Below are positions 3,094 to 64,000 of a stretch of 64,000 bases of DNA, piece after piece. The notes below the pieces were generated by a model. That model was not told the DNA's origin, did no database searches, and was given only the letters and a program-made list of their open reading frames with translations. A program made the translations under genes and the position numbers. How positions within the stretch are numbered: position 1 is the stretch's first letter; each line of letters opens with the position of its first letter. This DNA is from Desulfoluna sp. (GTDB taxonomy: Bacteria > Desulfobacterota > Desulfobacteria > Desulfobacterales > Desulfolunaceae), in assembly GCF_030145185.1 (NCBI RefSeq), contig NZ_JAQYWB010000026.1, positions 7,454-71,453 on the forward strand, given 5' to 3'.

Positions 3094-4311
3094 CTACACG
3101 CCGAATTTCTTTCCGTAATTCTCCACCACAAAATCGATGTCTTTGTCGCCCCGGCCGGAGAGGTTCACCAGAAGGGTCTCCTCCTTCGGGAGCTCCTTGG
3201 CAAGCGTCATGGCGTAGGCCACGGCATGGGCGCTCTCGATGGCAGGGATAATGCCCTCGGTGCGGGAAAGCTCAAACAGGGCGTCGATGGTCTCCTCATC
3301 CCCTGCCGTGACATAATTCACCCGCTTGATGTCTTTCAGGAGGCTGTGCTGGGGACCAACGCCCGGGTAATCAAGGCCGCTTGCCACGGAGTAAACGGGC
3401 AGGGGCTCACCGGCCTCATCCTGAAGAAGATACGATTTAAAGCCATGCAGGGTCCCAGGCGTTCCCAGGGTCAAGGTGGCGGCGTGTTTGCCATCTTCAA
3501 GGCCCGCCCCCGAAGGCTCAACCCCATGCATCTTGACGCCCTCGTCTTCAAGAAAGGCAGCGAAGAGCCCCATGGCGTTGGAACCGCCCCCCACACAGGC
3601 CACCAGGTGATCGGGAAGTTTCCCGTAGCGTTCCTGGAACTGAGCCCGGGCTTCGATGCCGATGATCTTCTGAAAATCTCGCACCATCATGGGAAAGGGA
3701 TGGGGCCCCACCACGGAGCCAATGGCATAGAGCTGGGTCACCGGATCCGCAAGATACGCTTCAAAGGCGGCATCCACAGCATCTTTAAGGGTCTGGGTGC
3801 CTCGGGTCACCGGGATCACATTGGCCCCTAAGATCCGCATGCGGATGACGTTAGGTTTTTCTTTTTCAATGTCGATCACCCCCATGTAGATATCACACTC
3901 CAGCCCCACAAGCACAGCCGCCGTGGCCAGAGCCACGCCGTGTTGTCCGGCGCCGGTTTCGGCAATCAGCTTCTTCTTGCCCATGCGCTTGGCCAAAAGG
4001 GCCTCACCCAGGCAGTGGTTAATCTTATGGGCTCCGGTATGGTTGAGGTCTTCCCGCTTGAGGTAGATCTGAGCGCCCCCGATCTTCTCGGAGAGGTTTT
4101 TGCAGTGAAACAAAGCACTGGGACGCCCGACGAAATCCTTCATGAGCATGGTCAGCTCGCTGATAAACGCGGGATCCTCTTTGATCTCATTGTAGGCGGC
4201 GGTGATTTCATCAAGGATGGCCTGGAGCTCGGGCGGAACAAAGCTGCCGCCATAATCTCCAAAATAACCTTCGGCGTTGGGCATTTCAAGGCTGCGAATA
4301 TCGGTGGTCAT
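3094..4311 (-). CDS. trpB: tryptophan synthase beta chain
   Basis: 405 aa with the PLP-lysine context [21 protein letters not shown] and a TrpB-wide match. Start MTTDIR preceded by AGGAGA. No trpA adjacent. Confidence 0.9.
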
Positions 4312-16348: not shown

Positions 16349-16970
16349 GCCTCCGGCGGCAAGGTGTGCCACCTTGAAAGCAGGTTGCGAATGCGTGGAG
16401 GCCGTCTTTATCCATGCGCTTTCGGGGCATTCGCTCGAAGGATGAAATATAACGACCGTCACGGCAGGAGACACCGATTTCATTCTTCCGAAAAACCTGG
16501 GAGCGGGGCCGTTCTGCTGAACGGCCCTCACCGCCTGAGTGATTCCCGTTAAAGCCATGAGTTCCCTGTTCATCCCAGGCCCCAATATCACCCACACCGG
16601 TGAGATTACGGCGGCATCGTAGGGTGGGCAAAGCGCGAATAATGTTCGTTCCTAAGACCCCATGCCCTTGTGGCACACGGTGCAGGGCCTTAAACTCTGC
16701 GCGAATGCGAACGCATTGCCGCCACAAATGACGACACCCGATGCGCATTCGCAAACCCGCTTTCGAGGAGGTTCACCTCGCCGCCGGAGTTATTCCGGTT
16801 AATATCAACCCATGAGTTGATACGGAAGCACCGGTAACGTATGCGCTTGCGACACACGAGGCACCCCCTCACCCTTCACGCGGACGCGGACGCGGGGTGC
16901 CGCAAGTACCGATAGCCGGGGAGCATTCGCAAACCCGCTTTCAAGGTGGCGTCACCTTGCCGCCGGAGGC
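16349..16970. repeat. cluster of three right-arm repeat units (16349-16440 reverse, 16700-16788 forward, 16921-16970 forward) in a 650-bp gene-free gap
   Basis: Each unit contains GCGAATGC...GCATTCGC and CAAGGTGNGCCACCTTG hairpins. The last unit provides the PatB stop. Confidence 0.8.
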
Positions 16971-62674: not shown

Positions 62675-63220
62675 GAAGATCACACCTTTGTTCAGAATTA
62701 ATGGAATCCGCAGCAACCCTGCTGCCCAGAATGTTAGGATGGCATCGCCAAAAATCGAACGGACGCCATCACACTCAAACATGCCGCCTTCCGTCCACCG
62801 TTGACCCCACGATGCTGTGATGAAGAGCGTTGACCTTTTAAAGAATGTAACCCGTGAAAATGGTGGCTCACCATGGAAAAAGGAGGTGTCATAAAGCTAC
62901 AAACGAAATGAAATTCAGAGAACGAAGAAAGCGATTCATTGTTGATATGCAACCAAAAGCCATCCAAAACTTACCTTGTTATTATAACACTAACCACGTT
63001 TCAATGTAAGTTCAATCTAATGACAAGGCCACCTGCCGCCCCCCACGCGATCTTCATTACCCACCGTATTTACTGGTAAATTACGAGGAGACACGACACC
63101 CACGCCAACCGGACAGACCTGTCACCCGGAGGCGGGCCAGCTCACCCACCCTTCTATCATGCCTTAATTAAACAAAAAAACCTCTGATCACTCAATCTAC
63201 AAGGACCTTTATAAAAAGAT

Positions 63221-63348
63221 TCCGGAGGCGTCCTACTCTCCCGCGCAGCTGCCCGTGCAGTGCCATCAGCGCAAAAGAGCGGGCCTTATCTCATGACTTG
63301 GCCGTGTTCGGAATGGGAACGGGTGTGACCTCTTTGCAATCACCACCG
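63221..63348 (-). rRNA. rrf: 5S ribosomal RNA (copy adjacent to degenerate 23S fragment; possibly itself degenerate)
   Basis: The reverse complement reads ...CACCCGTTCCCATTCCGAACACGGCCAAGTCATGAG...GATGGCACTGCACGGG...GCGGGAGAGTAGGACGCCTCCGGA, matching 5S helices and loops. Confidence 0.75.
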
Positions 63349-63427
63349 AAAAACGGTATATGCGTTTTTCGGATCATTCAATCAGGATATGGATTCAATA
63401 AAGCGCTCAGCATCTGTGTAGTAAGAT

Positions 63428-63930
63428 TGTGGCTAAGCCTCACGACCAATGAGTACCGGTAAACTGAACACATTGCTGTGCTTACACATCCGGCCTATCA
63501 ACCTCGTAGTCTTCGAGGTGTCTTCAGTCCGGCACTCAATTTCATGCTCAAACATGTAGCATTGACAGAGACATTACACGTCTCCTTCAACATACTGCTT
63601 AAGCGCAAAATTGAGTACCGGAAGGGATATCTAATCTTGAAGGGGGTTTGCAGCGATGATGCTTTCAGCGGTTATCCTTTCCGAACCGTAGGATGGGCAA
63701 AGCGCGAAGCGTGCCCATCTTTTACTTCCTGAAAACGCGACAACAGGAACACCAGAGATTCGTCCATTCCGGTCCTCTCGTACGAGGAACAGATCTCCTC
63801 ACCCAGTTTTATTATCTGGCCTCCGCCCACGAAAGATAGGGACTAAACTGTCTCATGACCTTTCATAAATCAGGCAAACCCAGCTCACGGACCACTTTAA
63901 TTGGCGAGCCGTCACCGCTGTATTTCGTAC
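63428..63930 (-). pseudogene. degenerate fragment of the 23S rRNA 3' end (domain V/VI incl. sarcin-ricin loop), not a full 23S gene
   Basis: The reverse complement aligns to GGCT-CGCCAATTAAAGTGG...GAGCTGGGTTT...GTCATGAGACAGTT...AGTACGAGAGGACCGG...TGAAAGCATC...GTTGATAGGCCGG...GTGAGGCTTA. The universally conserved A-loop and GGGUUUAGAACGUCGUGAGACAG segments are altered, and several insertions are present. It begins immediately after a terminator and is only ~500 nt long. Confidence 0.55.
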
Positions 63931-63933
63931 ATA

Positions 63934-63974
63934 CAAAACAAAAAAGGCTCTTGATGATTAAATCATCAAGAGCC
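63934..63974 (-). terminator. rho-independent terminator downstream of the 5S copy that runs off the window
   Basis: On the minus strand, GGCTCTTGATGATTTAATCATCAAGAGCC followed by TTTTTTGTTTTG. Confidence 0.65.
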
Positions 63975-63986
63975 TTTATAAAAAAA

Positions 63987-64000
63987 TCCGGCGGCGTCCT
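63987..64000 (-). rRNA. rrf: 5S ribosomal RNA, 3'-terminal 14 nt only (gene continues beyond window)
   Basis: TCCGGCGGCGTCCT matches the 3' end of the 5S at 63221-63234 with one difference. Confidence 0.4.

Follow-up and report, generated by a model that had tools for sequence, protein, structure and literature searches.

The minus strand at the edge of a 64,000-nucleotide (nt) stretch of Desulfoluna DNA (the whole stretch is referred to below as the window) carries what is probably a long-dead duplicate of the terminal part of a ribosomal RNA (rRNA; rrn) operon, and all parts of this relic lie on that strand. Read from the edge at position 64000, the locus begins with the last 14 nt of an upstream 5S rRNA gene (5S_a; 63987-64000), whose sequence (AGGACGCCGCCGGA) is identical to the 5S 3' end found in the related metagenome loci L002 (179-192) and L072. 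It is followed by an intrinsic terminator (term_a; 63933-63977) that consists of a 16-pair stem (63977-63943) and a T run; its predicted folding energy is −23.4 kcal/mol with a z-score of −6.8, and the hairpin is kept with compensatory stem changes in L002, L072, L005 and L128. After a junction of about 20 nt comes a 23S rRNA tail pseudogene (23S'; 63429-63920), which corresponds to E. coli positions ~2546-2904 (helices 92-101) and contains both lesions and insertions. Next in line are a 78-nt copy of the 23S-5S spacer (63351-63428), whose central 39 nt recur without change in the spacer with which L002 begins, a second 5S copy of 131 nt (5S_b; 63220-63350), and a degenerate copy of the terminator (term_b; 63162-63219) that has retained its T run, possesses the motif GTTTAATTAAGG at 63173-63162, and folds with a predicted −7.8 kcal/mol (z = +0.2). 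An earlier sequence-only reading of this DNA had recognized the 5S end, the hairpin-plus-T-run terminator and a degenerate fragment of the 23S 3' end, and all three are borne out here; the degenerate terminator has to be added to these, and the reading had overlooked a 93-nt hairpin and a palindrome resembling repetitive extragenic palindromic (REP) elements, both of which are described below.

Only two Rfam families are represented across the whole 64 kb, LSU_rRNA_bacteria and 5S_rRNA. The LSU match spans 63429-64000 on the minus strand (125 bits; model positions 2549-2925) and is cut at its 5' side; true 23S homology within it begins near 63920. A permissive Rfam scan of the window added nothing credible (mir-590 and STnc390 appeared at chance level, with E about 0.4), and tRNA genes are absent from the window. 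No promoter-like site was found upstream of the relic; the sole one detected (63010-62981) is located about 170 nt beyond term_b and belongs to the next gene, which encodes a cNMP-binding/PilZ protein. Inspection by eye of the conserved first block of the 23S fragment likewise yielded no promoter, on either strand, that was consistent across the copies.

Relatives of the locus were collected as syntenic metagenome contigs that were reached through homologues of the neighbour protein (57-75% identity), and, for L072, through a pattern scan for loop C of 5S rRNA; among the matches listed, L072 was the only one belonging to this group, while the others came mostly from unrelated taxa and served as genuine-rRNA controls. 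The neighbour protein itself is 100% identical to an NCBI protein assigned to Desulfoluna sp., although exact look-ups of either gave no record. A metagenome scan with a 22-mer from the spacer gave no match, and a genome-contig search with the neighbour protein had as its sole match a 27%-identical protein from Desulfobulbus. The contigs of L003, L004 and L005 end at the 5S gene or the terminator and are hence uninformative with respect to an absence of the fragment.

When compared with genuine rRNA, 23S' falls short in length, in score and in its conserved motifs. A complete 23S rRNA has ~2900 nt and domains I-VI (Rfam RF02541); here, only the last ~360 positions are present, with a 5S end and a terminator directly upstream. 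The 125 bits of 23S' amount to about a third of the 399.9 bits reached by the genuine tail of locus L033 (Rfam model positions 2534-2925), and the score per position is not comparable to that of genuine 23S. We aligned the fragment with 14 genuine 23S tails, that of E. coli and 13 from metagenome loci: of the columns that do not vary in this reference set, 23 of 166 are changed in 23S' and 16 of 150 in the L072 fragment. In a leave-one-out control, 13 genuine tails deviated at 0 to 6 invariant columns and one at 17. The A-loop, U2584-2586 with A2602, and the sarcin-ricin loop are not conserved as they are in a working molecule. The A-loop hairpin of 23S' is gone (GACGGCUCGCC); the fragment reads GACGGCTCGCC where GGCUGUUCGCC is expected and also contains GGGTTTGCCTGATTTATGAAAGGTCATGAGACAG, deviations that are present just as the sequence-only reading had quoted them; A2572 is replaced by C, and G2607 by A. 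The sarcin-ricin loop, which had been listed among the recognizable parts of the fragment, is indeed there as a segment but is not intact, since its remnant CGUACGAGAGGACCGG (63769-63784) has C in place of A2654 at 63784 and thus CGUA rather than AGUA; L072 exhibits a 3-nt deletion at the very same spot.

Some of the lesions are shared with relatives and can be regarded as founding ones. The alignment with the 14 genuine tails places an 11-nt insert (GCCTGATTTAT; 63865-63875) directly after U2584-U2586 in the peptidyl transferase centre; it is common to L002, where it is identical, and to L072, where it has one change. An AT-rich extension of the 5' strand of helix 94 (CCAGATAATAAAACTGG; 63803-63819) is also common to L072. 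The 11-nt insert is the reverse complement of the ancestral form of this helix-94 extension (ATAAATCAGG) as it is seen in L072, and its inverted-repeat partner resides inside the extension at 63812-63803 (in L072, the two arms are at 3409-3419 and ~3472-3481). The resulting inverted repeat (arms CCUGAUUUAU and, in L072, AUAAAUCAGG) flanks 23S positions 2587-2632; as read directly from the sequences, the window retains 8 of the 10 pairs and L072 retains 9. This relationship points to an ancestral inverted repeat of 10 base pairs (bp) formed by the two shared inserts, and it suggests a templated origin through strand switching. The pairs that were later broken have not been compensated, which argues against selection for this helix. 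A further founding lesion, common to L072 and L126, is the 8-nt block ATCGCTGC (also given as AUCGCUGC; 63650-63657), which replaces the invariant UAAGCGGG at 23S positions 2756-2763 and breaks the conserved hairpin of helix 97, as is evident from the non-standard pairs marked in the Rfam alignment.

Two additional insertions are private to the window copy. The tip of helix 97 is replaced by repeat DNA (63687-63735) that is absent from L072 and holds the REP-like palindrome (63719-63692), found once at this site where 0 would be expected; 34 nt of this repeat DNA match the 242-nt tandem repeat of L002 at 94%, and a partial copy of the palindrome is situated at 16618-16639 of the window. The REP-like palindrome (GATGGGCA...TGCCCATCCTAC) is dispersed in the genome from which the window comes, and in L002 (384-897) it forms part of the 242-nt unit, which is present there in ~2.3 tandem repeats at the former site of the 23S fragment. 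The second private insertion is a nearly perfect 93-nt hairpin (63529-63621; −54.2 kcal/mol, z = −9.6) that replaces the short hairpin of helix 98, a helix that is normal (5 bp) in L072 and L126. No other copies of the 93-nt hairpin were found in the window or in the loci. It starts with CCGGTACTCA (63621-63612), and the same 10-mer recurs in helix 101 of the fragment (63458-63449), which may hint at an origin of the hairpin through local copying.

The second 5S copy had been described as complete, and this is correct insofar as both termini are present. However, its 131 nt, compared with the usual ~115-120 nt, include a previously unreported 14-nt insert after CACGGC (63300-63287). With 53.2 bits, 5S_b exceeds the Rfam gathering score of 38 (RF00001), whereas genuine 5S genes reach 96-105 bits. 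Further deviations are a U-U mismatch in helix I caused by a G-to-U change at 63232 (as the sequence-only reading had noted), an A-C mismatch in helix IV, and a change in loop C. Transcription of 5S_b as part of an operon would seem unlikely, as a strong terminator lies ~590 nt upstream, no promoter-like site could be recognized, and its own terminator is degenerate. We regard 5S_b as probably a pseudogene. The 5S copies of L002 and L072, with an insert of equal size to that of 5S_b, keep their helices. Comparison of these two copies with each other reveals differences in helix II that are compensatory, and at least those copies were therefore under 5S-like constraint until recently.

An insert of 14-19 nt is a feature of every 5S copy at this locus within the inner group of relatives, and its position never varies: it follows CACGGC, in the 3' side of loop B/helix III (window, 63300-63287; L002, 111-128; L072, 3216-3233; L126, ~178-197; L128, ~8-27 and ~226-245). 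The insert sequences are almost unrelated between lineages, and neither L005 nor the other 5S genes (about 118) among the loop C pattern matches listed possess such an insert.

The various relatives retain different portions of this array. L072, whose contig contains no syntenic protein, has a 5S gene with insert, the terminator, and then a 23S fragment that shares with the window the 5' boundary, the 11-nt insert (with the one change), the helix-94 extension and the AUCGCUGC block; neither of the two insertions private to the window is present, and the sarcin-ricin loop has lost 3 nt in a deletion peculiar to L072. In L002 (neighbour protein 70% identical), the 5S gene with insert and the terminator are followed by the fragment's first ~60 nt with the identical 11-nt insert, but 242-nt tandem repeats take the place of the remaining fragment and there is no second 5S copy. 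The contig of L126 (75%) begins inside the fragment at AUCGCUGC and possesses a normal helix 98; a deletion joins the 23S end to the 5S copy at approximately position 9 of the latter, which has lost its 3' end along with the terminator. In L128 (60%), a 5S gene with insert and a terminator precede another 5S copy that is truncated at its 5' end, contains the same insert and is again followed by a terminator; helix IV is broken in both of its 5S copies, and a 23S piece is missing. L129 (65%) likewise lacks a 23S piece and retains ~45 nt of a 5S copy between two terminators, the second of which is intact. L005 (57%), the outgroup in the protein tree, has a normal 5S gene without an insert. Taken across the copies, a 5' boundary near position 2546 is shared by the window, L072 and L002, while the A-loop has been destroyed in three different ways and the sarcin-ricin loop damaged in two. 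In L072, the first 5S gene is preceded by an insertion sequence (IS) element and a Usp-like gene, with no 23S gene within 3.1 kb; in at least one lineage, the relic array thus exists detached from an operon. The IS element of L072 (1335-3157) is positioned directly upstream of the 5S gene and codes for a 565-amino-acid (aa) transposase with the Pfam domain DUF4277; the Usp-like gene lies beyond it. A full operon beyond position 64000 would lie outside the window and is no more than a possibility.

We suggest, with a probability of roughly 0.7, that the relic is an rRNA pseudogene, old and without function, which arose when the terminal part of an rRNA operon was duplicated in tandem. The duplicated unit would have comprised 23S positions ~2546-2904, the 23S-5S spacer, the 5S gene and the terminator. 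The shared 5' boundary and lesions indicate that the copy goes back to one founding event in an ancestor of a group of Desulfoluna-like lineages, and because these lineages have saturated neutral DNA, the duplication is old rather than recent. The copy was already dead in the common ancestor: it lacks the body of the 23S gene and a promoter, is situated behind a strong terminator, and has as its founding lesions A2572C, the 8-nt block that breaks the helix-97 hairpin, and the 11-nt insert beside the peptidyl transferase centre. Later decay has been lineage-specific and has proceeded mainly through deletion and the insertion of repeat DNA; such divergent private damage is what one commonly sees in pseudogenes. 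Those parts that survive are envisioned to have stayed rRNA-like through repeated overwriting by gene conversion from genuine rRNA genes, a process that would erase point changes, not large insertions or deletions. No step in this scenario would need the fragment to serve the cell. Most likely, the relic does nothing, given that it has no promoter, has a strong terminator ahead of it, is unable to form a peptidyl transferase centre, and that no part of it is kept in all lineages. The sequence-only reading had already favoured a decaying partial duplicate of the rrn 3' end over a working 23S gene; the truncation, the score, the lesions and the inserted repeats support this view, as does the finding that the relic recurs in L072, L002, L126, L128 and L129 with common founding lesions but different deletions. 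The relic could also be dismissed as a conserved protein gene, because the sense open reading frames that span it, of 52 aa in the window and of 62 aa in L072, differ in their ends and stops.

Several observations weigh against this interpretation and need to be carefully considered. The surviving blocks are ~94-95% identical between lineages, far above what is seen for neutral DNA: the 23S' tails agree at 127 of 135 positions between the window and L126 and at 105 of 111 between L072 and L126, and the first block agrees at 41 of 43 between the window and L002. The intergenic DNA from the relic to the next promoter scores 0.49-0.52, compared with 0.50 for shuffled sequences, and is thus saturated, and flanking genes of the window and of L002 have reached a synonymous divergence (dS) of 0.8-1.5. 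In addition, the lesion positions for which genuine genes offer no template are conserved, the 11-nt insert at 11 of 11 positions in L002, the AUCGCUGC/ATCGCTGC block at 8 of 8 in L126 and L072, and A2572C as well; conversion can account for positions with an rRNA template but cannot explain the conservation of these features, since a genuine template is lacking for them. The equally template-less 5S insert, unlike the lesion blocks of 23S', has almost fully diverged between lineages. Moreover, the conversion donors are assumed, not seen, as no genuine 23S or 5S gene of the genus entered the comparison. A genuine 23S gene carrying the 11-nt insert is very unlikely in view of the position of this insert beside the peptidyl transferase centre. 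The compensatory differences in helix 98 (CUGAC/GUCAG in L126, UUGAC/GUCAA in L072) and in helix 99 (CCUCG/CGAGG in the window, CCUUG/CAAGG in L072 and L126) are expected if these segments have been copied from constrained genuine genes. For the conserved lesion blocks, there is a modest probability that some of them are under selection of their own; alternatively, rRNA-like patches may still be exchanged between lineages.

The slow change of the surviving blocks next to intergenic DNA at the shuffled level and a dS of 0.8-1.5, the retention of the template-less lesions (the 11-nt insert, ATCGCTGC and A2572C) and the compensatory changes in helices 98 and 99 could all be accommodated if the copy of the rRNA tail, or parts of it, were a functional non-coding element under purifying selection. 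The first ~45-nt block with its 11-nt insert and the helix 98-101 block would be the candidates; the element might act as a decoy for ribosomal proteins or for enzymes directed at rRNA, or offer them a platform for binding, or it might work in cis at the operon end. We nevertheless consider such an element unlikely. No part of the relic is found in all lineages, given that L128 and L129 have no 23S piece, that only ~60 nt of it are left in L002, and that L126 is devoid of the spacer and of both 5S ends; the 10-bp inverted repeat loses pairs without compensation; private lesions have struck the best-known motifs, the sarcin-ricin loop in two ways and the A-loop in three; the relic lacks a promoter and sits downstream of a strong terminator; and Rfam matches the relic to rRNA families only. 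Slightly less credible still is the specific proposal that the surviving blocks, including the sequences that are absent from any genuine rRNA, are maintained by purifying selection through a newly acquired role as RNA or DNA; if true, one would be dealing with an rRNA-derived functional element conserved in a group of sulfate reducers, e.g., a decoy for proteins that bind domain VI and 5S rRNA, or a cis element at the operon end. It is also rather improbable that the relic is just as dead but of a different origin, namely a complete tandem rrn operon that was internally deleted, or the scar of a Campbell-type integration in which a circular element with a fragment of an rrn tail integrated and its backbone was later lost. 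The one sharp 5' boundary near position 2546 in all copies would fit such an event, and the locus does draw mobile and repeat DNA (the IS element in L072; REP-like repeats in the window and L002). Yet two steps would be needed where a partial duplication requires one, the ~20 nt between term_a and the fragment contain no remnant of a backbone, and no similar fragment was found in plasmid, phage and viral collections. A mobile origin was rejected on the grounds that the plasmid and phage collections yielded only generic 23S matches (69-75%); scanning the viral collection with ATCGCTGC gave no match, and the one viral match to the insert pattern was discarded as a chance hit, since it is located inside a coding gene where no rRNA is present.

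That the locus might encode an unusual but working rRNA, with a separately encoded 3' domain of a fragmented or expanded 23S rRNA and a functional variant 5S rRNA, had been raised as an alternative in the sequence-only reading. Helix 98 of 23S rRNA is known to tolerate insertions, and the second 5S copy passes the Rfam gathering score; moreover, expanded 5S rRNAs do exist (PMC7812874). This alternative is nonetheless unsupported and appears extremely improbable to us, as the A-loop is destroyed, an insert has been placed beside U2584-2586, A2654 is changed to C, the helix-97 hairpin is broken, the copies of the relatives are truncated in incompatible ways, and the entire piece is located behind a strong terminator. 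We attach just as little credence to an assembly artefact, i.e., a metagenome-assembled genome in which rRNA reads were joined into a chimera. In every relative, the contig is interrupted within this region or close to it, which shows that the region is hard to assemble, but both the founding lesions and the arrangement of the parts recur in independent assemblies (L072, L002, L126) from different samples and pipelines, each of them joined to unique flanking DNA.

Remnants of 5S rRNA genes that contain inserts and reside behind terminators at the distal ends of rrn operons have been described by Stepanov & Fox 2021 (RNA 27:133, PMC7812874) from Peptococcaceae and Pseudoalteromonadaceae; these authors suggest vertical inheritance of the pseudogenes together with recombination with normal genes. 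The relic of Desulfoluna resembles these remnants in that 5S-like copies, sometimes several of them, are found downstream of a 5S gene at an operon end with a terminator before each; in the window, the 5S end at 64000-63987 and the terminator at 63977-63933 provide this setting. The insert site matches as well and is the same in the window, L002, L072, L126 and L128, and one or both termini are missing in the copies of L126, L128 and L129. It differs from them in that 5S_b of the window keeps both termini, in the host group (Desulfolunaceae within the Desulfobacterales), in the additional presence of ~360 nt of a 23S tail and a spacer, and in a short insert (14-19 nt) whose sequence has little in common from one lineage to the next. 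The relic is hence new as a case from the Desulfobacterales that carries a 23S tail, while 5S remnants at operon ends were already known. The literature on truncated 23S copies in bacteria yielded nothing relevant beyond this study.

Several other arrangements invite comparison. Among them are the tandem 23S-5S duplication (rrlA-rrfA-rrlB-rrfB) of Borrelia burgdorferi sensu lato and the extra distal 5S gene of the E. coli rrnD operon. As in these two systems, the 3' part of an rRNA operon has been duplicated in tandem at the Desulfoluna locus and a second 5S copy follows behind the first; unlike them, where the copies are complete and functional, the relic has only the last eighth of the 23S gene, and in a damaged form. 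A second full-length 23S gene of the Borrelia type is not present: in the window, as in L072 and L002, the fragment starts at ~2546. In bacterial 23S rRNAs, helices 9, 25 and 45 are known to harbour intervening sequences and expansion hairpins. Like these, the 93-nt hairpin of the window puts a long and nearly perfect stem where a peripheral helix would otherwise end, but it is found in helix 98 of a dead copy, is restricted to the window lineage, and is a single copy in 64 kb. Finally, the rRNA gene copies of bacteria undergo concerted evolution through gene conversion, and this process is the proposed cause of the near-genuine blocks and the compensatory differences in the relic. It departs from the usual situation in that the recipient would be a truncated pseudogene, and it leaves the conserved lesion blocks unaccounted for.

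For genome annotation, it should be noted that Rfam and rRNA finders will call a partial 23S gene and an extra 5S gene at this locus, but these calls should not be taken as evidence of a functional gene or operon. If our interpretation of the relic as a dead duplicate is correct, it would represent a well-resolved bacterial rRNA pseudogene that has lasted through deep divergence, with pieces being lost and the remainder staying near rRNA, and it could provide a natural test bed for the extent to which a dead copy is still converted by functional rRNA genes. The lesion blocks would be of wider importance if they were under selection. The 5S inserts of 14-19 nt at one site extend the known range of expanded and remnant 5S genes to the Desulfobacterales.

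A number of minor observations concern the distal end of the array. The second terminator is still a good hairpin in L002 and L129, and the sequence TTTTTGTTTAATTAAGG that comes after it (63180-63162 in the window) is also found in L002 (1030-1052) and L129 (160-180). The 11-mer GTTTAATTAAG from the term_b motif additionally occurs inside the 5S inserts of L002 and L072; it might mark either a recombination end point or a chance similarity. The two tandem 5S copies of L128 (1-360) have identical inserts, and in both of them CAGAGCGUCC replaces CUGUGUGGGA, with helix IV being broken; the dead 5S copy of L126 carries the same CAGAGCGUCC block. This lesion would either predate the split between L126 and L128 or have moved between copies.

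The cNMP-binding/PilZ gene next to the relic (63010-62675 region of the window) has an upstream region with features of its own. Its promoter (TTACAT-N17/18-TATAAT) is conserved in all relatives (L002-L005 and L126-L129), and the ~300-nt leader that follows, which matches no Rfam family, is partly conserved (0.65 between the window and L002, compared with 0.51 for shuffled sequences). The protein as annotated by NCBI (1129 aa) starts 36 codons upstream (62782-62675, minus strand) of the start of 11 homologues, all of which begin with MADELN... and are 1092-1097 aa long; judging from these sequences, the annotated start is probably too far upstream.

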